Source: Octopus vulgaris (lineage: Eukaryota). From it: a DNA stretch of 64,000 nucleotides. Shown one piece after another: positions 2,690 to 61,045 of this stretch. The position numbers and the translations under genes were made by a program. Under the pieces are notes generated by a model. That model was given only the letters and a program-made list of their open reading frames with translations, searched no databases and was not told where the DNA came from. How positions within the stretch are numbered: the stretch's first letter is position 1; each line of letters opens with the position of its first letter. The stretch spans positions 7,378,001-7,442,000 of the forward strand of contig OX597827.1 of the NCBI GenBank assembly GCA_951406725.2, in the 5' to 3' direction.

Positions 2690-4432
2690 AAAATAGGTAA
2701 GATTTGAACTAAGCTAGTGAATGGAAATGCCAAATGAGCAAACAATGGAATCGGTTGAGAAAAGGCTGTGGTATAAGTATTTGGGAATACTTCTAGGCAA
2801 GTAAACTGCAGGGAGGGAGTATACAAGGAGAGTGAGGGGAAATATTACGATCAAGGTTGAATTCAAGAAATGTTATTGAAGCAATTAATTCAAGAGCAGT
2901 GCCATCTATCAGGAGCTGGAAATGTGAACTGGACAAAATGCGAAATGGAAATTTAACAGAGAAACTAGAAATCTGCTGATTATGTATGAAGTCCATCACC
3001 TGAAAGCTGATATCAGCTGGTTGTACTTGAAGAGTCACCAGGGTGGAAGAGGTTTAATTGGTGTGGTGGAATATGTGCAAGGGGAATGAAACAGCTTACT
3101 TAATTATTTGCAGAACATCTCAAAAAAGTTACTAAAGGCAGTGAATAAAGAACAGGTGATCAAGACTGGAAAAGGAGAAAAGGACAAAAATGAAATTCAA
3201 AGAATACACATTAAATGGATTGAAGAGAAACCTTTACATGACCAGTTTTGAAAAGCCATCGAGGAGGTATGTGGGACAAAATCTTGGGCCTGGTTGTAAA
3301 AAGGAGCAAATGAAAAAAGAAATGGACAGCCTTATTCTAGCTACTCAAGATCATGCATTGCAAACAAAGAACTTAAAATGCCTCAGGTTATTCCAGGGAG
3401 GCATTCTAAGTTCTTTGTTTGCAGTGCATGATCTTGTTGGTATCAAATTTCTGGCAGGCGGGTGGTCGCTTGATGCTGCTGAGCCGCATCTTGATCTTGG
3501 CAACCAGAAGTTCATGGTCAGATCCACATATTTTGGTCATATTATGCGGAGAAAATCCCTGGAGAAGGACATCATGCTCGGAATGGTCAGTGGCAAGAGA
3601 GGAAGAGGCCGACCAAGAACCCACTGGCTTGACACCATCAAGAGTGACATTATGTAGAGAAAATCCCTGGAGAAGGACATCATGCTTGGAATGGTCAGTG
3701 GCAAGAGAGGAAGAGGCTGACCAAGAACCCACTGGCTTGACACCATCAAGAGTGACATGGGAATGGCCATAGCCAATCTGAAAGAAGCGGCCCAGGATAG
3801 AACTGACTGGAGAACACTGATCCATCGAGTAACTGAGAGTTGACTTTGACTGAGCGGATAGATAGATAGATATACCAAGGAGAATATAACAAATGGGGAT
3901 ATAACCAGATTGTAAATATTTTACACTGGAGGCTGATTCAAAAATGGTGGGCTTGAAGCAATAAGAACATGGTACAATCATTGGGTAGAAAGAGTACTTT
4001 GAGGTAGAAACATGCAAATATTGTGAAATTTTCCCATTTAAATGGATATGAAGATAGAAGATAGCAAGCAAGATATATACAGTAACAGACAAAGAAAACT
4101 AAATTTGCTAACTGATTTATCCATAATCTCCATTTAAAGCTGTGACTGTGCAGAAAGCAGATGAAAGTTGTAAAAACACAACCCCTTAAAATTCGAGATT
4201 GCAATGATTTGGAGCATGAAATTTGTGAAGATTGTTCCCATGGAGACTGTGAATGATGAGGTAGACAAATGGATAAAGGAGAACTAAAGAGAGTGTCCTA
4301 CAAATTTTCTACAGGTTTCCTTCGTAGGAACAGGAAAGACCATCAGAAGGGTTTTAAAGCACTTAATGGATTATTGAAATCATTAGTAACACACATAAAT
4401 TCCATAAGGAATATGAACAACCTTGAGTCAAG
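2690..4432 (+). mobile_element. Degenerate R4/Dong-clade non-LTR retrotransposon (RT thumb to RLE C-terminus), interrupted by an RTE insertion
   Basis: Broken peptides YKYLG, HHLKADISWLYLKSHQGGRGL (cf. HPKADVDRLYLPRKEGGRGL), KKEMDSLILATQDHALQT, FEIAMIWSMKFVKIVP and VGTGKTIRRVL, ending in (TAA)n at ~4433. Confidence 0.75.
3437..3870 (+). mobile_element. RTE/BovB-like LINE insertion: inverted endonuclease fragment plus 3' end with a 108-bp internal duplication
   Basis: Plus strand YFGHIMRRKSLEKDIMLGMVSGKRGRGRPRTHWLD...LKEAAQDRTDWRTLIHRVTES with a (GATA)n tail. Minus strand 3527-3437 reads CGSDHELLVAKIKMRL. The repeat starts at 3541 and 3649. Confidence 0.85.
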
Positions 4433-10855: not shown

Positions 10856-11176
10856 CAACTTTGTTAACCCCTCTGACAAAATTAGTTAATAAATCTTACA
10901 CAATTAAAACCTATATGGAAGAGTGAACATCATGTCTGAGAGGTTTTATAATGTGAATAAGATTTTAGCAGTCCACTCAATATATTTAGATAGATATATC
11001 TTGATCATTAATATAATTGATTTATGCTTTCCGCTGAATTTCTCTGCAAAATCTACCATCTATTTTTGAGATATATTTTATATATTTTCTTTCTTTCTTT
11101 TTTTTTTTTGTATAGAACAATTTGGTTTGGAATATTCTTCAACATCATTTGAACAGAAATTAATGAAAGCTCTTAC

Positions 11177-13546
11177 CTGCTGAGTAACTGGAGTAAGATC
11201 TTGCAGCTGTACACCTGTTTCTAAGCCTTTCCAATTATTTTCAGAAGTTTTCTTTAATAAGGTACCTTCAAAGATTCTATCATTACTAACATCTTGGGCT
11301 GTAGTAAAAGTTGCATCATACTGTGATTGACAGGCATATTCTGATTCTCCCATTTCAGTAATAAACTTGTCATTGACATCAATTAAAGTATCGTTTTGGT
11401 TCCTTCTTATGATGCATGTTGTTACAGAAACTACAATAGCCACGGATACTATCACTGCAGCCACTACTATAATAATCATCAAGTTTATATGTATTCTGTT
11501 GTCTGATTCCGTGTCTTCAGCTGTGTACATTCTGGCTGTTGTATTGCTAACAGTTAGTGACAAAGATAGTGTGGTCGTTGCTGATAAAATTGGTGTACCA
11601 CTGTCTTTGACTGCTAATTTTATGTTATATGATCCAGCATCGTTTTGGTAAACTGTACGAGAGAAAGATAAAATTCCTGTGTAAGGGTTGACTGTGAATA
11701 GCTGTTTGTTATTACCGCCAAGTATTTCATACCTGAGGAAAGAGTTTACATGACTGTCTCTATCAGAGGCTCTTAATGTTGTGATGTCACTCTTACTCTG
11801 TGGATGGTAGTGGACGTCTATATTAAAAGGGTCAAAGCTAGGAAATGTAAAATATGGGGCATTGTCGTTTTTGTCCATAACTTCTATGATAATATTTGCT
11901 GTACTACTGAGAGACGGTACTCCATTGTCTTTAACAATAACTTTCATATTATATATTTCCTGTTTCTCTCGGTCCAACGACTGAGTTGTAGCTATGAATC
12001 CAAAATTGGAAATCTTAAAAGGAAAAAAGTTATTGTCATCTAAAAATGAATATGTTAGTTTACCCCCTGGTCCTAGATCAGGATCTGTTGCATTTATAAG
12101 ACCGACTGGAAAATTTGAGTCTTCATTTTCGTAAGTTAGAAATTTGAAAGTGTTTTTTGTAAAGCTTGGTTGCACATCATTGACATCCATTATTTTTATT
12201 AAGAATTTCTTTTCTGTCTGGAGCGGTGGTGAACCTTTGTCTTCACAAATTATTATAAAGTCTGTGTAGTCTTCAATTTCTCTGTTTACTGTTTTTTGAA
12301 CCACGACTTTGTATTTCTTTCTCCCCATTTTCTGAAGCATGAATTTATTATGTTTGAGTTTACACTCCACCTCACCATTCTGTCCAATGTCATTGTCTGT
12401 GATTTTCACATAAGCTATAAAGCTGCCAACTTCAATATCTTCAGAAATGGTAGCTTTGTTTTCAGCTGTTTTAGAGAAAAATTTTACATTTATTTTTGGT
12501 GGATTATTTTCATGGTTAATCATATTTATAAAAACTATAGCAGTAGCTCGCATTGGAGGATTTCCACCATCTTTAGCATCAATAAACAACTGGTAGTTTT
12601 GTTTCATTTCACTTTGAAAATGTTGACTTAGCAATATTTCACCTGTTTCAGCATTTAATCTGAAATATTTTTTCGAAGGTTCTGTCATCTTAGAGCTAAA
12701 TGAATAGGTAACTTTACCATTTTTACCTTTATCATTGTCAGTTGCCGACAGCTTGACAATTGGATGGCTTCTTTCTTGTGTGTTTCTTAAGGATATATTA
12801 TACAAAGTCTTAGTGAATACTGGAGAATTATCATTCTCATCTGTCACAGATATCTGAACATATAAAACACCATTTTGAGGAGGCGAGCCTTTATCTTTTG
12901 CAACAACTTCAAGGTTATATGTATCTCTAATTTCCCGATTGAGTCTTTTAATTAGAATTATTTCAAGTTTTGAAGCTCCATCAACCGTCTTTAAAACAGA
13001 TAAATTGAATGGGTCATCCAGATCCTTCTTTAGATAATATACAATCTGGGAATTTAAAATACTAACATCTCTGTCAATAGCGTTTGGTATTGATTTTGCC
13101 ATTCCTATAGCATCACCTTCAGAGAACTCAAGATTAATCTTATCATTAGCAAATTCTGGCTGATGGTCATTTATATCTTCTATTAAAACTTTTATTTCTA
13201 ATATTTTCACAAAAGATTTCTTATTTTGCACTGCAATTTCAATGATTTTACTGCACTCTTTATTATATTTACAAAGAGGCTCAGCATCCAATATCTGAGA
13301 TGTGTATAATCTTCCGGTTTTGGAGACATTGAATAACTGTGAATTAACAGCTGTGTTCTCTTGTAGCAAGCTGAAACGGATGAAACTGTGGTCCCTTGGT
13401 GGAATGCTGCGCAGTACTTCAGTATCAGAAGCAATATCACCGATAAAAAGACCAGGGCTCTGACCTTCTTTCACATGGTATGTAAAGTCTATACAGAAAG
13501 AATAATCCCAAAGAAGTAATAGCAATACACATACGTGTAGATACAT
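11177..13546 (-). CDS. Protocadherin (coleoid-type, 6 EC repeats), large coding exon: signal peptide, EC1-6, TM, proximal cytoplasmic tail
   Basis: 824-aa ORF 11078-13552. First ATG is at 13546 (AAAATG), followed by hydrophobic MYLHVCVLLLLLW. Cadherin linkers DINDHQP, DENDNSP, NHENNPP, DVNDVQP, DKNDNAP plus DxD and AxDxG motifs. EC1 has C-X5-C (CKYNKEC). TM is INLMIIIVVAAVIVSVAIVVSVTTCII. A strong phase-0 donor CAG|GTAAGA lies at 11177/11176; unspliced read-through stops at 11078. Confidence 0.95.
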
Positions 13547-13635: not shown

Positions 13636-13667
13636 CCTGAAAGTAAATTTTATACTCTAGAAACCTG
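13636..13667 (-). other. Candidate 3' splice acceptors upstream of the protocadherin ATG
   Basis: Minus strand aatttactttCAG|G (exon start 13636) and tgtatattCAG|G (exon start 13664), 90 and 118 nt before the ATG. Confidence 0.55.
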
Positions 13668-26022: not shown

Positions 26023-26193
26023 TGACCATACGTAATAGTGGGTCAGTTCCACAAGTCCCACTTGTATTTCTTCACCACACATATGCTTCTAGTATTTGTC
26101 TGTGGGTAAGAGTGCTGTACACCAGCTCTACCAATCTCATCTCATTTTCTGTTTTAAACACCAAGACTATTGCTTCCATAGTCCCTAATTTTT

Positions 26194-26609
26194 ATTTCTT
26201 TATTGCCCACAAGGGGTTAAACCTAGAGAGAACAAACAAGGACAGACAAAGGGATTAAGTCAATTACATCGACGCCAGTGCGTAACTGGCACTTAATTTA
26301 TCGACCCCAAAAGGATGAAAGGCAAAGTCGACTTCGGCAGAATTTGAACTCAGAACGTAGCGGCAGACGAAATACCTATTTCTTTACTACCCACAAGGGG
26401 CTAAACACAGAGAGGACAAACAAGGACAGACAAACAGAATAAGTCGATTATATCGACCCCAGTGCGTAACTGGTACTTATTTAATCGACCGCGAAAGGAT
26501 GAAAGGCAAAGTCGACTTTGGCAGAATTTGAACTCAGAACATAGCGGCAGATGAAATACCACTGAGCATTTCGCCCAGTGTGCTAACGTTTCTGCCGGCT
26601 CGCCGCCTT
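26194..26609 (-). mobile_element. Family-2 SINE tandem dimer (one 5'-truncated, one full)
   Basis: Two consecutive copies starting at ~26194 and ~26377. Confidence 0.88.
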
Positions 26610-46195: not shown

Positions 46196-46350
46196 TTCCA
46201 TCCATAACCATCTCATCTTTTCTCTCTTTCTTTCTTTCTTAGCACAATATACCCTGGTATATATTACCTACCACACCAAACTTAATTTTTTTCTTTTCTT
46301 TTCTGAATGATGGTACAATATGATTCCATCCATAACCATCTCTCATCTTT

Positions 46351-46385
<35 letters not shown>

Positions 46386-46497
46386 CTGCACAATCTACCC
46401 TGGTATATATTACCCACCACACCAAACTTAATTTTTTTTCTTTTCTTTTCTGAATGATGGTACAATATGATTCCATCCATAACCATCTCTCATCTTT

Positions 46498-46536
<39 letters not shown>

Positions 46537-46625
46537 CTGCACAATCTACCCTGGTATATATTACCCACCACACCAAACTTAATTTTTTTCTTATTCTTTT
46601 CTTTTCTGAAAGATGGTACATTATG
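46196..46625. repeat. Local triplication, 128-147 bp unit containing (CTTT)n
   Basis: TTCCATCCATAACCATCTC starts at 46196, 46324 and 46471. Confidence 0.9.
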
Positions 46626-47424
46626 ATTTGAAAGTGATTTTTGCTGTTATTTCTAACAAGTTATATGGCTCCATAGAAGAGCTCTCACTAACTCATATTG
46701 TTGCTGTTGTTGTAATATGTGTAGGAATCAATTTTAGGGAATTTGCTGTTTTTAGATAGTGAGATATTGTACTTCCATTGTAGTGTATAATGTTTATGGT
46801 GATTCAGTGTGTGCATTCAGGTGAGTATCTGCTATTCTGTGATGCCTGAGTGTGTATCAGGGAATTTTGTACTGAGAAGCTTCTGTACATCCACTGTTCA
46901 TATTTTGTGCAAAGTCATCACCTTTGAATATTTTCCCCACTTAGTATTGATCTGCATAATATTGATCTGTTTCAACTTCATTATCGTTCAATCAGCATTT
47001 AAGTAGCTACCTTTTCTAGTTTATTGTTTTTGGAATTATATTATTCTTTATCCCTATTTAACATAGAATAATATAGTCTCTGATAAATTTGGATGGAATT
47101 TTTAACAGGACAAGTAACCAACTCAAAGAATTTTCTCCATTCATTGTAGAATTGTTTAATTTCTAACAAAAATATCACCTGTTCTTTAATTTAGCACCTA
47201 TGATTTTTGGTACAGCCACTCACAGTTAGGACCATTTTAGCAGCATTATAGGTCCTTAGACAAATCAATGCTCTGAGGTCTATAGTATTTATTTAATGAC
47301 TGTAAACCACATTATATACAAATCCTAATTGGGCCCTAAAATCTGTAAGGCACCCTAAAAACTGTCAGGTGTGACCATACCTTAATATGGCATTGCACAC
47401 TGCACTAATTAAATCATTAATATT

Positions 47425-51545: not shown

Positions 51546-52074
51546 AAAAATAGGACAGCTGATGGTGATTAAATATAATCGTTTAGTGAAACTGGGTGTC
51601 ATCCTCAACATCCTCATCATTGTTATCATCATTGACATTGATGCCGCACTCATCATTAGCATTGTTGTCATCATCATCGTTGTCATTGTTGCCATCATCA
51701 TCATCATCGTCTTCATCATCATTGTTGTCATCATTTAATGTCTACTTTTCTATGCTTTCAGGGCTCAGAAGGATTCAGCTGAGAGAAATTTTCTATGAAT
51801 GGATACCCTTTTTCTCACAGATTTTCTATGGATGGATACCTCTTTTTGTTACAGGATCACTCATTTACACCTGAGTGAACAGGAGTGACATGGAATGAAG
51901 TGTTTTGTTCAAAAATACATTGTGCTGCTTGCTCTGGGAATTGAACCCATGATGTAGCAATGTTCTTTCCAAGCAACATAATGTTTCTCCATGGCCAGAC
52001 AACATCATTGTATGATGGTGATGCTCATTTACAACCATCACATAATGTTAACACTAAAGTATACAAGGATACAC

Positions 52075-52075
52075 A

Positions 52076-52112
<37 letters not shown>

Positions 52113-52270
52113 TGGGTTTCTTTCAGTTTCCATCTATGAAATCCACCCACAAGTCTTTGGTTGACCTGGGGCTGTCACAGAAGACACTTAACCTTAGGAG
52201 ACATTCTGTGGGATTGAACCTGAAGCCATGAGGCTGGGAAGCAAACTTCATACCACACAGCTGTGCATAC
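52075..52270 (-). mobile_element. Diverged family-1 SINE (parent of the satellite)
   Basis: TTTCTTTCAGTTTCCATCTATGAAATCCACCCACAAG...AGAAGACACTT...GTGGGATTGAACC...ACCACACAGC aligns with young family-1 copies such as 36660-36817. Confidence 0.85.
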
Positions 52271-55200
52271 AACAATATTTGAGCAGTAAAGGAAAACAAA
52301 ATAAAAAAACAAAAAAAAATTTTAGGAGACATTCTGTGGGATTGAACCTGAAGCCATGAGGCTGGGAAGCAAACTTCATACCACACAGCTGTGCATACAA
52401 CAATATTTGAGCAGTAAAGGAAAAAAAAAAAAAAAAAAAAATTTTAGGAGACATTCTGTGGGATTGAGCCTGAAGCCATGGGGCTGGGAAGCAAACTTCA
52501 TACCACACAGCTGTGTATACAACAATATTTGAGCAGTAAAGGAAAACAAAAAAAAAACAAAAAAAAATTTTAGGAGACATTCTGTGGGATTGAGCCTGAA
52601 GCCATGGGGCTGGGAAGCAAACTTCATACCACACAGCTGTGCATACAATAATATTTGAGCAGTAAAGGAAAACAAAAAAAAAACAAAAAAAATTTAGGAG
52701 ACATTCTGTGGGATTGAGCCTGAAGCCATGGGGCTGGGAAGCAAACTTCATACCACACAGCTGTGTATACAACAATATTTGAGCAGTAAAGGAAAACAAA
52801 AAAAAAACAAAAAAAAATTTAGGAGACATTCTGTGGGATTGAGCCTGAAGCCATGGGGCTGGGAAGCAAACTTCATACCACACAGCTGTGCATACAACAA
52901 TATTTGAGCAGTAAAGGAAAACAAAAAAAAAAAACAAAAAAAAAATTTAGGAGACATTCTGTGGGATTGAGCCTGAAGCCATGGGGCTGGGAAGCAAACT
53001 TCATACCACACAGCTGTGCATACAACAATATTTGAGCAGTAAAGGAAAACAAAAAAAAAACAAAAAAAAATTTTAGGAGACATTCTGTGGGATTGAGCCT
53101 GAAGCCATGGGGCTGGGAAGCAAACTTCATACCACACAGCTGTGCATACAACAATATTTGAGCAGTAAAGGAAAACAAAAAAAAAAACAAAAAAAAATTT
53201 AGGAGACATTCTGTGGGATTGAGCCTGAAGCCATGGGGCTGGGAAGCAAACTTCATACCACACAGCTGTGCATACAACAATATTTGAGCAGTAAAGGAAA
53301 ACAAAAAAAAAAACAAAAAAAAAATTTAGGAGACATTCTGTGGGATTGAGCCTGAAGCCATGGGGCTGGGAAGCAAACTTCATACCACACAGCTGTGCAT
53401 ACAACAATATTTGAGCAGTAAAGGAAAACAAAAAAAAAACAAAAAAAAATTTTAGGAGACATTCTGTGGGATTGAGCCTGAAGCCATGGGGCTGGGAAGC
53501 AAACTTCATACCACACAGCTGTGCATACAACAATATTTGAGCAGTAAAGGAAAACAAAAAAAAAAACAAAAAAAAAATTTAGGAGACATTCTGTGGGATT
53601 GAGCCTGAAGCCATGGGGCTGGGAAGCAAACTTCATACCACACAGCTGTGCATACAACAATATTTGAGCAGTAAAGGAAAACAAAAAAAAAAAAAAAAAA
53701 ATTTAGGAGACATTCTGTGGGATTGAGCCTGAAGCCATGGGGCTGGGAAGCAAACTTCATACCACACAGCTGTGCATACAACAATATTTGAGCAGTAAAG
53801 GAAAACAAAAAAAAACAAAAAAAAATTTAGGAGACATTCTGTGGGATTGAGCCTGAAGCCATGGGGCTGGGAAGCAAACTTCATACCACACAGCTGTGCA
53901 TACAACAATATTTGAGCAGTAAAGGAAAAAAAAAAAAAAAAAAAAAAAATTTAGGAGACATTCTGTGGGATTGAGCCTGAAGCCATGGGGCTGGGAAGCA
54001 AACTTCATACCACACAGCTGTGCATACAACAATATTTGAGCAGTAAAGGAAAACAAAAAAAAAAAAAAAAAAAAAATTTAGGAGACATTCTGTGGGATTG
54101 AGCCTGAAGCCATGGGGCTGGGAAGCAAACTTCATACCACACAGCTGTGCATACAACAATATTTGAGCAGTAAAGGAAAACAAAAAAAAAACAAAAAAAA
54201 AATTTAGGAGACATTCTGTGGGATTGAGCCTGAAGCCATGGGGCTGGAAGCAAACTTCATACCACACAGCTGTGCATACAAAATATTTGAGCAGTAAAGG
54301 AAAACAAAAAAAAAAAAAAAAAAAATTTAGGAGACATTCTGTGGGATTGAGCCTGAAGCCATGGGGCTGGGAAGCAAACTTCATACCACACAGCTGTGCA
54401 TACAATAATATTTGAGCAGTAAAGGAAAACAAAAAAAAAACAAAAAAAAATTTAGGAGACATTCTGTGGGATTGAGCCTGAAGCCATGGGGCTGGGAAGC
54501 AAACTTCATACCACACAGCTGTGCATACAAAATATTTGAGCAGTAAAGGAAAAAAAAAAAAACAAAAAAAATTTAGAGACATTCTGTGGATTGAGCCTAT
54601 TTGGCTGGGAAGCAACTCACCACACAGCTGATACAAAATATTTGAGCAAAAAAACAAAAAAAAAAAATTTAGGAGACATTCTGTGGGATTGAACCTGAAG
54701 CCATGGGTCTGGGAAGCAAACTTCATACCACACAGCTGTGCATACAACAATATTTGAGCAGTAAAGGAAAACAAAAAAAAAAAAAAAAAAAATTTAGGAG
54801 ACATTCTGTGGGATTGAGCCTGAAGCCATGGGGCTGGGAAGCAAACTTCATACCACACAGCTGTGCATACAATAATATTTGAGCAGTAAAGGAAAACAAA
54901 AAAAAAACAAAAAAAAATTTAGGAGACATTCTGTGGGATTGAGCCTGAAGCCATGGGGCTGGGAAGCAAACTTCATACCACACAGCTGTGCATACAATAA
55001 TATTTGAGCAGGAAAACAAAAAAAAAAAAAAAAATTTAGGAGACATTCTGTGGGATTGAGCCTGAAGCCATGGGGCTGGGAAGCAAACTTCATACCACAC
55101 AGCTGTGCATACAATAATATTTGAGCAGTAAAGGAAAACAAAAAAAAAACAAAAAAAAAATTTAGGAGACATTCTGTGGGATTGAGCCTGAAGCCATGGG

Positions 55201-58200
55201 GCTGGGAAGCAAACTTCATACCACACAGCTGTGCATACAATAATATTTGAGCAGTAAAGGAAAACAAAAAAAAAACAAAAAAAAATTTAGGAGACATTCT
55301 GTGGGATTGAGCCTGAAGCCATGGGGCTGGGAAGCAAACTTCATACCACACAGCTGTGCATACAACAATATTTGAGCAGTAAAGGAAAACAAAAAAAAAA
55401 AAAAAAAAAAAATTTAGGAGACATTCTGTGGGATTGAGCCTGAAGCCATGGGGCTGGGAAGCAAACTTCATACCACACAGCTGTGCATACAACAATATTT
55501 GAGCAGTAAAGGAAAACAAAAAAAAAAAAAAAAAAATTTAGGAGACATTCTGTGGGATTGAGCCTGAAGCCATGGGGCTGGAAGGCACAACTTCAGTACC
55601 ACACAACAGCTGTGCAACAAGGCAATATTTGAGCAGTAAAGGAAAACAAAAAAAAAAACAAAAAAAAAATTTAGGAGACATTCTGTGGGATTGAGCCTGA
55701 AGCCATGGGGCTGGGAAGCAAACTTCATACCACACAGCTGTGCATACAACAATATTTGAGCAGTAAAGGAAAACAAAAAAAAAAACAAAAAAAAAATTTA
55801 GGAGACATTCTGTGGGATTGAGCCTGAAGCCATGGGGCTGGGAAGCAAACTTCATACCACACAGCTGTGCATACAACAATATTTGAGCAGTAAAGGAAAA
55901 CAAAAAAAAAAAACAAAAAAAAAATTTAGGAGACATTCTGTGGGATTGAGCCTGAAGCCATGGGGCTGGGAAGCAAACTTCATACCACACAGCTGTGCAT
56001 ACAACAATATTTGAGCAGTAAAGGAAAACAAAAAAAAAAACAAAAAAAAATTTAGGAGACATTCTGTGGGATTGAGCCTGAAGCCATGGGGCTGGGAAGC
56101 AAACTTCATACCACACAGCTGTGCATACAACAATATTTGAGCAGTAAAGGAAAACAAAAAAAAAAACAAAAAAAAAATTTAGGAGACATTCTGTGGGATT
56201 GAGCCTGAAGCCATGGGGCTGGGAAGCAAACTTCATACCACACAGCTGTGCATACAACAATATTTGAGCAGTAAAGGAAAACAAAAAAAAAAACAAAAAA
56301 AAAATTTAGGAGACATTCTGTGGGATTGAGCCTGAAGCCATGGGGCTGGGAAGCAAACTTCATACCACACAGCTGTGCATACAACAATATTTGAGCAGTA
56401 AAGGAAAACAAAAAAAAAAACAAAAAAAAAATTTAGGAGACATTCTGTGGGATTGAGCCTGAAGCCATGGGGCTGGGAAGCAAACTTCATACCACACAGC
56501 TGTGCATACAACAATATTTGAGCAGTAAAGGAAAAAAAAAAAAAAAAAAAAAATTTTAGGAGACATTCTGTGGGATTGAGCCTGAAGCCATGGGGCTGGG
56601 AAGCAAACTTCATACCACACAGCTGTGCATACAACAATATTTGAGCAGTAAAGGAAAACAAAAAAAAAACAAAAAAAAAATTTAGGAGACATTCTGTGGG
56701 ATTGAGCCTGAAGCCATGGGGCTGGGAAGCAAACTTCATACCACACAGCTGTGCATACAACAATATTTGAGCAGTAAAGGAAAAAACAAAAAAAAAAAAA
56801 AAAAAAAATTTAGGAGACATTCTGTGGGATTGAGCCTGAAGCCATGGGGCTGGGAAGCAAACTTCATACCACACAGCTGTGCATACAACAATATTTGAGC
56901 AGTAAAGGAAAACAATAAAAAAAAAAAAAAAAAATTTTAGGAGACATTCTGTGGGATTGAACCTGAAGCCATGGGGCTGGGAAGCAAACTTCATACCACA
57001 CAGCTGTGTTTACAACAATATTTGAGCAGTAAAGGAAAACAAAAAAAAAAAAAAAAAAAATTTAGGAGACATTCTGTGGGATTGAGCCTGAAGCCATGTG
57101 GCTGGGAAGCAAACTTCATACCACACAGCTGTGCATACAACAATATTTGAGCAGTAAAGGAAAACAATAAAAAAAAAAAAAAAAAAAAATTTAGGAGACA
57201 TTCTGTGGGATTGAGCCTGAAGCCATGTGGCTGGGAAGCAAACTTCATACCACACAGCTGTGCATACAACAATATTTGAGCAGTAAAGGAAAAAAAAAAA
57301 AAAAAAAAAAAAATTTAGGAGACATTCTGTGGGATTGAGCCTGAAGCCATGGGCTGGGAAGCAAACTTCATACCACACAGCTGTGCATACAACAATATTT
57401 GAGCAGTAAAGGAAAACAAAAAAAAAAAAAAAAAAATTTTAGGAGACATTCTGTGGGATTGAACCTGAAGCCATGGGGCTGGGAAGCAAACTTCATACCA
57501 CACAGCTGTGTTTACAACAATATTTGAGCAGTAAAGGAAAACAATAAAAAAAAAAAAAAAAAAAATTTAGGAGACATTCTGTGGGATTGAGCCTGAAGCC
57601 ATGTGGCTGGGAAGCAAACTTCATACCACACAGCTGTGCATACAACAATATTTGAGCAGTAAAGGAAAACAATAAAAAAAAAAAAAAAAATTTAGGAGAC
57701 ATTCTGTGGGATTGAGCCTGAAGCCATGTGGCTGGGAAGCAAACTTCATACCACACAGCTGTGCATACAACAATATTTGAGCAGTAAAGGAAAAAAAAAA
57801 AAAAAAAAAAAATTTAGGAGACATTCTGTGGGATTGAGCCTGAAGCCATGTGGCTGGGAAGCAAACTTCATACCACACAGCTGTGCATACAACAATATTT
57901 GAGCAGTAAAGGAAAACAAAAAAAAAAAAAAAAAAAATTTTAGGAGACATTCTGTGGGATTGAACCTGAAGCCATGGGGCTGGGAAGCAAACTTCATACC
58001 ACACAGCTGTGTTTACAACAATATTTGAGCAGTAAAGGAAAACAATAAAAAAAAACAAAAAAATTTAGGAGACATTCTGTGGGATTGAGCCTGAAGCCAT
58101 GTGGCTGGGAAGCAAACTTCATACCACACAGCTGTGCATACAACAATATTTGAGCAGTAAAGGAAAACAATAAAAAAAAAAAAAAAAAATTTAGGAGACA

Positions 58201-60348
58201 TTCTGTGGGATTGAGCCTGAAGCCATGTGGCTGGGAAGCAAACTTCATACCACACAGCTGTGCATACAACAATATTTGAGCAGTAAAGGAAAACAATAAA
58301 AAAAAAAAAAAAATTTTAGGAGACATTCTGTGGGATTGAACCTGAAGCCATGGGGCTGGGAAGCAAACTTCATACCACACAGCTGTGTTTACAACAATAT
58401 TTGAGCAGTAAAGGAAAACAATAAAAAAAAAAAAAAAAAATTTTAGGAGACATTCTGTGGGATTGAACATGAAGCCATGGGGCTGGGAAGCAAACTTCAT
58501 ACCACACAGCTGTGTTTACAACAATATTTGAGCAGTAAAGGAAAACAATAAAAAAAACAAAAAAAAAATTTAGGAGACATTCTGTGGGATTGAGCCTGAA
58601 GCCATGTGGCTGGGAAGCAAACTTCATACCACACAGCTGTGCATACAACAATATTTGAGCAGTAAAGGAAAACAATAAAAAAAAAAAAAAAAAAAATTTA
58701 GGAGACATTCTGTGGGATTGAGCCTGAAGCCATGTGGCTGGGAAGCAAACTTCATACCACACAGCTGTGCATACAACAATATTTGAGCAGTAAAGGAAAA
58801 CAATAAAAAAAAAAAAAAAAATTTTAGGAGACATTCTGTGGGATTGAACCTGAAGCCATGGGGCTGGGAAGCAAACTTCATACCACACAGCTGTGTTTAC
58901 AACAATATTTGAGCAGTAAAGGAAAACAATAAAAAAAAAAAAAAAAATTTTAGGAGACATTCTGTGGGATTGAACATGAAGCCATGGGGCTGGGAAGCAA
59001 ACTTCATACCACACAGCTGTGTTTACAACAATATTTGAGCAGTAAAGGAAAACAATAAAAAAAAAAAAAAAAAATTTAGGAGACATTCTGTGGGATTGAG
59101 CCTGAAGCCATGTGGCTGGGAAGCAAACTTCATACCACACAGCTGTGCATACAACAATATTTGAGCAGTAAAGGAAAACAATAAAAAAAAAAAAAAAAAA
59201 ATTTTAGGAGACATTCTGTGGGATTGAACCTGAAGCCATGGGGCTGGGAAGCAAACTTCATACCACACAGCTGTGTTTACAACAATATTTGAGCAGTAAA
59301 GGAAAACAATAAAAAAAAAAAAAAAAAAATTTTAGGAGACATTCTGTGGGATTGAACATGAAGCCATGGGGCTGGGAAGCAAACTTCATACCACACAGCT
59401 GTGTTTACAACAATATTTGAGCAGTAAAGGAAAACAATAAAAAAAAACAAAAAAAAAATTTAGGAGACATTCTGTGGGATTGAGCCTGAAGCCATGTGGC
59501 TGGGAAGCAAACTTCATACCACACAGCTGTGCATACAACAATATTTGAGCAGTAAAGGAAAAAAAAAAAAAAAAAAAAAATTTTAGGAGACATTCTGTGG
59601 GATTGAACATGAAGCCATGGGGCTGGGAAGCAAACTTCATACCACACAGCTGTGCATACAACAATATTTGAGCAGTAAAGGAAAACAATAAAAAAAAAAA
59701 AAAAATTTTAGGAGACATTCTGTGGGATTGAACCTGAAGCCATGGGGCTGGGAAGCAAACTTCATACCACACAGCTGTGTTTACAACAATATTTGAGCAG
59801 TAAAGGAAAACAATAAAAAAAAAAAAAAATTTTAGGAGACATTCTGTGGGATTGAACATGAAGCCATGGGGCTGGGAAGCAAACTTCATACCACACAGCT
59901 GTGTTTACAACAATATTTGAGCAGTAAAGGAAAACAATAAAAAAAAAAAAAAAAAATTTAGGAGACATTCTGTGGGATTGAGCCTGAAGCCATGTGGCTG
60001 GGAAGCAAACTTCATACCACACAGCTGTGCATACAACAATATTTGAGCAGTAAAGGAAAACAATAAAAAAAAAAAAAATTTTAGGAGACATTCTGTGGGA
60101 TTGAACCTGAAGCCATGTGGCTGGGAAGCAAACTTCATACCACACAGCTGTGTTTACAACAATATTTGAGCAGTAAAGGAAAACAATAAAAAAAAAAAAA
60201 AAAATTTTAGGAGACATTCTGTGGGATTGAACATGAAGCCATGGGGCTGGGAAGCAAACTTCATACCACACAGCTGTGCATACAACAATATTTGAGCAGT
60301 AAAGGAAAACAAAATTAAAAAAAAAAACAAAAAAAAAAATTTGAGACA
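52194..60348 (-). repeat. Tandem satellite, 65 units of ~126 bp, derived from the tRNA-like head of a SINE plus its A-rich flank
   Basis: Unit TTAGGAGACATTCTGTGGGATTGA(G/A)CCTGAAGCCATG(G/T)GGCTGGGAAGCAAACTTCATACCACACAGCTGTGCATACAACAATATTTGAGCAGTAAAGGAAAAC-A-tract; 65 counted by eye. It is contiguous with the SINE body at ~52110-52193. Confidence 0.97.
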
Positions 60349-61045
60349 AGGTAGTTATGATTGCAATTCATTTCATAATATCTCTGTTCTATCGGGGTTG
60401 ACTAGTAACGACCAACAACAGTAGCAATAACAACAATAACAACAACATCTTCAATAAACTACCTGAACAACAAAGTTGGTTTATTGAAAATACAACTTTT
60501 AACTATACATAAAAAAAAAATTCAAAGCCAGATTCCAATAAAGATACTGTGTATATAAAGACAAGGAATTTACATCTGTCCATTACACAGATTGTCGGCT
60601 GGAATCTAAAAATCTCTGTAGCAGAGCAGAGCTAATATCTCTTTTTGTTTTTTTTCATGTCAGTTCTCTACAAAGCATTCACCTCGAATCTAGTGACCCA
60701 CAATTCTATCTAAGCAGACGTTTTGATTTCAGGTCTTTTTTATCTGTTATTTGTTTCAGTTTTTGGACTGAAGGGTTTTTTAAGTCAAACAAATTGACAT
60801 TAGTACTTATTCTTTTTTTTTTTTAATGTAATACTTATTCTGTTAGTCTCTATTACCAAACTGCGAAGTAACAAGGATGTAAACAAACCAGCACTGGTTG
60901 TCAAGCAATGGTGGCACACACACAAACACGCACACATGCATGTATATGTGTGTGTGTGTGTGTCTATATATAAATACACGAATACATGCACACATACACA
61001 TATATAAGTATATATATACATTATATATATATATATATATATATA

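Follow-up and report, generated by a model that had tools for sequence, protein, structure and literature searches.

Our analyses of a 64,000-nucleotide stretch of the Octopus vulgaris genome (GenBank assembly GCA_951406725.2, 2.80 Gb in 227 contigs; contig OX597827.1, here C14:7378001-7442000, hereafter the window, to which coordinates without a contig name refer) have identified a 65-unit tandem array built from the head of one short interspersed element (SINE), whose remaining body still follows the last unit. We consider it probable, at roughly 0.7, that this array is a single-locus SINE-derived satellite, likely neutral, without selected function and with at most weak RNA polymerase III (Pol III) activity; low-level engagement of Pol III or of transcription factor IIIC (TFIIIC) at its intact units would be compatible with such neutrality. 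The first-pass annotation of this DNA had proposed a special de novo Pol III gene cluster or chromatin boundary, a proposal that is not favoured by the frequency of other head arrays of the parent SINE, the decayed promoter and the absence of any favoured fold.

The array spans 52194-60334 with a period of 126 bp, 65.0 copies and 95% matches (Tandem Repeats Finder). A unit-by-unit parse, made and numbered on the minus strand with unit 65 at the lowest coordinates, divides 52194..60340 into 65 units of 96-134 bp (~126 bp), each consisting of a T-rich flank (~35 bp), an AT-rich flank and SINE positions 1 to ~80. Read on the minus strand, a unit opens with a T-rich leader and an AT-rich stretch; CAGCTGTGTGG occupies the A-box position, the B-box position follows after 32 nt, and a further 16 nt end in GTCTCCTAA. 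Both the copy number and the A box-B box-oligo-dT layout described by the first-pass annotation are thereby borne out. Its tract of at least 8 T is present in every unit (9-24 T), although the first run after the B box (7-24 T) misses that length by one unit; in 63 of 64 junctions, the first T4 begins 17-18 nt past the end of the B box, in agreement with the ~17 nt given earlier. Identical cores are found in 23 of the 65 units, with 15 core types overall. The array is confirmed to be genuine, neither chance nor an assembly artefact, because its variants are patterned along it and its junction is present in contigs of an independent sample (X2, below). It occupies one locus: a 25-mer from the founder flank has 55 exact matches, all 55 within the array, and no dispersed copies of the flank-containing unit were found in a genome-wide search. 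A coding role was ruled out, as the open reading frames (ORFs) across the array are frame-drifting repeats.

The origin of the array can be read at its two ends. The founder SINE continues directly after the last unit with its body and (GT)n tail (52071..52193, minus strand; sequence, repeat search and alignment), which are present once, and the terminal units 64-65, which carry GGTTCAATCC (52194..52443, minus strand; unit parse and alignment), include in unit 65 the head of the founder copy itself. The founder aligns at 70-78% identity with eight other copies in the window, and its closest genome-wide relatives are 79-83% identical. Compared with a consensus built from its 23 closest relatives, it has differences at 20 of 80 positions in the head and at 12 of 77 in the tail, the relatives' own mean difference being 13% for the head and 8% for the tail, and because of this divergence we regard it as an old, decayed SINE copy, whose head is, by these counts, not better kept than its tail. 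The array unit covers ~80 of the 160 SINE bases, and its initial ~45 bp are the founder's 5' flank, which runs on into unique DNA at 60341. A homology TGTCTC(CT)AA is present at both breakpoints, viz. TGTCTCAA in the unique flank on the left (60341..60348, minus strand) and TGTCTCCTAA within the SINE on the right (52194..52203, minus strand), the two being fused in the junction at their A's; this comparison of the breakpoints points to a short-homology tandem duplication. The origin from a SINE head, as previously claimed, is thus upheld by the body and tail after the last unit and by the alignment to other copies, and the founder alignment and breakpoints likewise agree with the claim that tandem duplication set the flank's T-tract behind each B box, except that the last unit (52321-52194) has no T-tract behind it and continues into the SINE body.

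Tandem amplification of this SINE is not limited to the present locus. The parent family gave 76 matches in 264 kb. Genome-wide, 3,157 dispersed copies combine the family A box with GGTTCAATCC, and all of them are nearer the consensus than any array unit. Pattern searches for repeated head motifs yielded 739, 161, 237, 185, 5, and 9 matches, and among the matches listed 37 loci were chosen and examined, 34 of which are other tandem arrays of the parent SINE (one locus without a reported array and two from other repeats were dropped); with exact motifs and periods up to ~160 bp, this census is a lower bound. Thirteen of the 34 sister arrays have 10 or more copies and at least 16 contain both boxes. 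They comprise arrays of the A box only (462 x 27, 45 x 33, and 38 x 37 bp), of the B box only (82 x 30 and 16 x 40 bp) and of the whole head (147 x 65, 24 x 95, and 13 x 71 bp), and since any part of the SINE is amplified, with a promoter or with none, amplification needs no working promoter. A run of T5 or longer lies 12-90 nt upstream of the A box in 13 of 53 dispersed copies, so that a duplication including the flank will often capture one.

Some of these loci have features of their own. On contig C28 (~11.960-11.970 Mb; L183-L184), the 147 x 65 bp array repeats the exact young SINE head, with A box and family B box, 98% matches and no T-run, and could possibly form a long read-through Pol III template. 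Large minisatellites of the A box or B box only are located at C3 ~177.827-177.840, C17 ~69.551-69.554, C4 ~35.174, and C3 ~17.389 Mb (462 x 27, 38 x 37, 45 x 33; 82 x 30 bp). The 13 x 71 bp array on C21 (~27.512 Mb; L212) has the consensus B box GTTCAATCC and no T4. Three arrays on C5 (50.597, 52.991, and 53.131 Mb; L148, L197, and L157), within 2.6 Mb of each other, have a common 117-bp unit with its junction in GAGTGG, through either reuse of one breakpoint or local spread. Within the window, two- to three-copy duplications of 184, 151, and 108 bp (26193-26560, 46219-46628, and 3541-3758) represent starting material for arrays, and a 54-bp x 24.6 tandem repeat with 95% matches ~7.2 kb past the window end (L073, joined coordinate 71243-72574) indicates that unrelated arrays arise nearby too.

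The Pol III promoter consensus consists of an A box TRGYnnAnnnG and a B box GWTCRAnnC (PMC4333407, cited here and below from the part of its text available). Compared with it, the A-box position of unit 65 (CAGCTGTGTGG; 52253..52263, minus strand), like that of every other unit, mismatches 2 of the 6 defined positions and is thus not a type-2 A box, in keeping with the imperfect A box noted earlier; the family form TGGCTGTGTGG, found in 44 of 63 nearby copies, is itself one position off, and the array has in addition the change of the first base from T to C in all units. The B box of unit 65 (GTTCAATCC; 52211..52219, minus strand) fits the consensus and the family majority GTTCAGTCC does not. 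Across the array the fit is found in 17 of 65 units, the W position being C in 48, and the previously reported division between GTTCAATCC (17 units) and GCTCAATCC (48) was reproduced by our count; the accompanying pattern GG(T/C)TCAATCCC describes the GGTT and GGCT units and misses six TGTT units. The GCTC change violates the consensus at the W position and leaves intact the TC pair of the B box, which is called invariant (PMC4333407), and its effect is for this reason likely a reduction rather than a proven loss. The spacing between the 11-nt boxes (32 nt) is tRNA-like, and the T7-24 run behind the B box has the form of a Pol III terminator. On this comparison the promoter is decayed, not preserved, while the intact B boxes, which are dominant in a related species, may keep TFIIIC binding or weak transcription possible. 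The young, abundant form of the SINE carries GTTCAGTCC, and 51 of 63 nearby copies read GGTTCAGTC (e.g. 61870-61700, 36821-36634, and 29890-29705); this form departs from the B-box consensus at an A that is normally conserved and has nevertheless spread widely.

An RNA starting at the first SINE base is predicted to be 85-86 nt long in 60 of 64 units, which corrects the ~80 nt proposed earlier. The folds of three unit RNAs have z values of -0.29 to -0.50, no better than those of shuffles, and no stable fold was found in these three or in two young SINE heads (all |z| <=0.5). A tRNA gene (ARAGORN, 0 genes) and a known RNA family (54 Rfam matches with E <=10, none of them in the array) were both ruled out.

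The distribution of B-box variants records part of the history of the array. The four letters preceding CAATCC are GGCT in 48 units (one of which, though of the GCTCAATCC type, has a C missing downstream), GGTT in 11 and TGTT in 6. Units 1-27 (56937..60340, minus strand) form a mixed block with variant patterns repeating every 2-4 units, in which GTTCAATCC is kept in 14 of 27; units 28-63 (52444..56936, minus strand) form a homogenised block with GCTCAATCC in 35 of 36 and one intact B box, and in units 64-65 the B box is intact. A four-A junction is common to 15 of the 16 intact-B-box units that have a following junction. Unequal exchange with local homogenisation is the best reading of these blocks. 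The B box of consensus type is ancestral, because it is present in the terminal units and dominant in the contigs of a second species label (organism B, below), and GCTC likely spread later in the lineage of the window.

Seven of 24 listed runs (X5 twice) were compared as assembled contigs, the copy numbers taken from contig depth being rough; X1 may be the source of the assembly, and X2 is from organism A but from a different sample and study. In X2, two contigs (depth 240 and 40 vs. 26 for the flank) end at 52194 and pass into the A-tract of the next unit. In X5 (organism B), the terminal contig ends at 52223, where 31-letter words become common to the units, and unit contigs have depths of 2087, 979, and 179 against 39-59 for the flanks. 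The corresponding values are 158 and 146 vs. 6.2 in X7 (organism C) and 163 and 153 vs. 4.2 in X9 (organism D), and X6 has unit contigs and no flank. Rough as they are, these depths show a multi-copy array under all four species labels. In organism B, the 979-depth contig has 1 mismatch to unit 65 and 2 to unit 1 and so cannot be of the GCTC type, and the 2087-depth contig is 1 letter from unit 1 and most simply of the GGTT type. The units show no fixed difference from those of organism B, and this conservation was not used as evidence of selection because flank divergence is uneven and multi-copy arrays lag. The flank of organism B diverges by ~7% at 51700-52042 (25 substitutions/356) and by ~1% at 60347-60620 (3 substitutions and a 3-base insertion/274). 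None of the 24 runs is listed as RNA. In X4, which is only by a guess an RNA sample, unit contigs of depth 2.9-10.4 cover, among others, the terminal unit together with the SINE tail, and the unique flank has no long contig; these contigs were not used as evidence because neither their strand nor their ends can be read and the run may contain DNA.

The neutral satellite would have arisen as follows. Slippage or microhomology-mediated repair at a short homology probably duplicated 126 bp of an old SINE copy and its T-rich flank, and the array then presumably grew and was homogenised by unequal exchange, possibly aided by the poly(dA:dT) tract. Expansion to tens of copies would have preceded the split of several close species, and the GCTC variant would later have drifted through 48 units, three quarters of the array, in the lineage of the window. 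The apparent terminator is the founder's old 5' flank, on this account set behind the B box by an accident of the breakpoints.

A number of observations weigh against this account. The founder's GTTCAATCC B box fits the consensus, as do those of only 1 of 63 nearby dispersed copies (and 7 of the 23 selected relatives of the founder), and the two main unit contigs of organism B (depth 2087 and 979) keep it by their difference counts. The head contains no internal T4 in the parse of all units. None of the 34 sister arrays examined has a T-run of T5 or longer (one has T4), which leaves the present array alone with an oligo-dT. CpG is absent from the array, so that CpG methylation cannot silence it. 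Finally, the unit contigs of organisms B, C, and D differ from window units at 0-2 of 44-60 letters (3-4 for one minor B contig) and reach tens of times the flank depth, indicating that the array has persisted. We weighed, and regard as unlikely, the alternative that a decayed SINE became, through a chance 126-bp duplication, a cassette of promoter and terminator that was amplified and kept at tens of copies, mostly with the B box intact, in several octopus species for an 85-nt Pol III RNA or for a TFIIIC-bound or nucleosome-free boundary within the protocadherin cluster.

A purely structural role has to be considered in relation to the genes around the array. The window contains a protocadherin coding exon (11078..13546, minus strand; 822 aa from the ATG, with cadherin repeats; ORF and domain evidence), and a non-coding exon further upstream is suggested by an AG-ended, pyrimidine-rich acceptor-like site at 13637, which precedes the ATG by 90 nt. 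The distance from this ATG (13546) to the array is 38.6 kb, which replaces the ~34 kb upstream given by the first-pass annotation; the array may lie either upstream of the gene or in an intron. No further cadherin ORF was found in 200 kb beyond the window. The 54 best relatives scored, of 1434 candidates, are all on C14, mostly on the minus strand within its first 15 Mb, and the array lies among them at 7.43 Mb along the 84.7-Mb contig; this fits the coleoid protocadherin cluster and the SINE-dominated octopus repeats described in the available part of PMC9068888. Because the locus sits in a multi-megabase cluster, proximity to a protocadherin gene carries little weight.

Poly(dA:dT) excludes nucleosomes, and a tract every 126 bp would disfavour them over 8 kb. 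The array might be a chromatin boundary or open block that insulates one protocadherin gene from its neighbours, with the 17 intact B boxes predicted to bind TFIIIC without transcription, as at extra-TFIIIC sites, which the poor A box would favour. This reading, which we hold to be rather improbable, can draw on the consensus B boxes, more numerous in organism B than the 17 of 65 here, on the 15.6% of the array that lies in A-runs of 5 or more, on the location inside the protocadherin cluster, and on the Pol III-independent TFIIIC sites with cohesin or condensin in fly and mammals (PMC4226948, available part). However, an array found once among at least 54 clustered paralogous genes is no cluster-wide device, the W position has been lost in 35 of the 36 units of the longest homogenised block, and thousands of consensus B boxes are dispersed in the genome.

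We give little credence to the reading of the array as a new type-2 Pol III gene cluster, kept by selection, whose 85-86-nt tRNA-like RNA with an oligo-U end would resemble BC1 or snaR. The tRNA-type spacing, the uninterrupted head, the strong T-run 17-18 nt past the B box and the ancestral state of the intact B box, still common in organism B, are in its favour, and tandem Pol III repeats related to tRNA are known in amphibians (PMC10702118, cited throughout from the part available). Against it stand the A-box change shared by all units on top of the family mismatch, the 48 altered B boxes, a fold that is neither stable nor tRNA-like, a head that has diverged more than the tail, and the silence in vivo of most SINE copies even with good boxes (PMC4333407). 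Repeated site-specific retro-insertion, with the plus-strand A-tract that ends every unit as a poly(A) tail, is largely refuted, as the A/T-tract, its neighbours and the AAATTT junction run unbroken into the unique flank at 60341 and beyond, TGTCTC..AA is common to both breakpoints, the unit is found nowhere else in the genome, and variant blocks repeating every 2-4 units are typical of duplication at the DNA level. Hardly credible, finally, is an assembly artefact or grossly inflated copy number, to which the variable T-tracts (9-24), the error-laden appearance of units 38 and 46 and the sum of only ~11x flank depth for the listed X2 junction contigs might point, but which the patterned substitutions, the existence of those junction contigs and the unit contigs of X5, X7, and X9, tens of times deeper than the flank, contradict.

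The closest known counterparts of the octopus array are the SINE-derived satellites (sSats) of squamates, sSat1-3, in which part of a SINE is repeated in tandem and the terminal unit is longer (PMC10702118). The octopus array corresponds to them in having at least four middle monomers (65 units), a unit shorter than the dispersed parent SINE, a terminal unit that reaches the SINE end (52193-52071) and high homogeneity (95% matches). It also resembles them in its head-to-tail units, which in squamates number from few to hundreds, and in variant patterns of the di- and trimeric kind, and it resembles sSat3Gja2 (5' part plus ~30 nt) in a unit with additional non-SINE sequence (PMC10702118). It differs in belonging to a mollusc-type genome, in its single locus 7.4 Mb from the contig end within a gene cluster, and in its flank-derived oligo-dT; the preference of squamate sSats for subtelomeric heterochromatin is a tendency, not a criterion, and their restriction to squamates was left open by the authors (PMC10702118). 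The amphibian PolIII/TAN (Cynops), OAX/satellite I (Xenopus), and Rana/polIII repeats are likewise tandem units with tRNA-like Pol III promoters, but they are abundant families, PolIII/TAN being transcribed in vitro, with an unconfirmed parent SINE (PMC10702118), whereas the octopus array is small, confined to a single locus, certain in its parent and known here from sequence alone.

Tandem gene copies with SINE-derived sequence and a T4 terminator supplied by the flank are also found in the snaR/Ya5-lm clusters of human chromosome 19 (PMC4333407); transcription of these clusters has been shown, and their repeat units are larger and include upstream DNA of their own, whereas the octopus heads lie only ~45 bp apart and their boxes have decayed. 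With extra-TFIIIC (ETC) sites and tDNA insulators the array has in common clustered B boxes without a good A box (PMC4226948), but ETC sites are defined by measured TFIIIC occupancy and co-binding of cohesin or condensin. Like the tRNA-derived SINEs of octopus, the parent element is an abundant tRNA-headed SINE of ~160 bp with a microsatellite tail. Such octopus SINEs were reportedly treated by Ohshima and Okada in 1994, and the parent SINE may belong to one of the named octopus families OK, OR1, and OR2. BC1 RNA, a SINE-type Pol III RNA that is transcribed, offers a further comparison. No paper on octopus SINE satellites surfaced in the literature searched, from whose coverage most subscription journals were absent.

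The significance of the array depends on which of these readings holds. If it is kept as a cassette, it would be a case of a Pol III gene array newly arising from an identified parent SINE, with the founder still attached, and if it is active, it would show the step from a SINE to a tandem Pol III gene array, since the amphibian Pol III satellites are without a proven parent SINE. The natural pair of GTTC and GCTC units and the terminator-less sister arrays (e.g. the 147 x 65 bp array on C28, a natural control) are built-in controls for the question of activity. If, as we consider more probable, the array is a neutral satellite, it would extend SINE-derived satellites from squamates to octopus, with at least 35 independent arrays; it would provide a clean, datable case, in which the founder, the two breakpoints and variants from several species are all at hand, for studying how a satellite starts and is homogenised; and it would be usable as a marker in the species complex.

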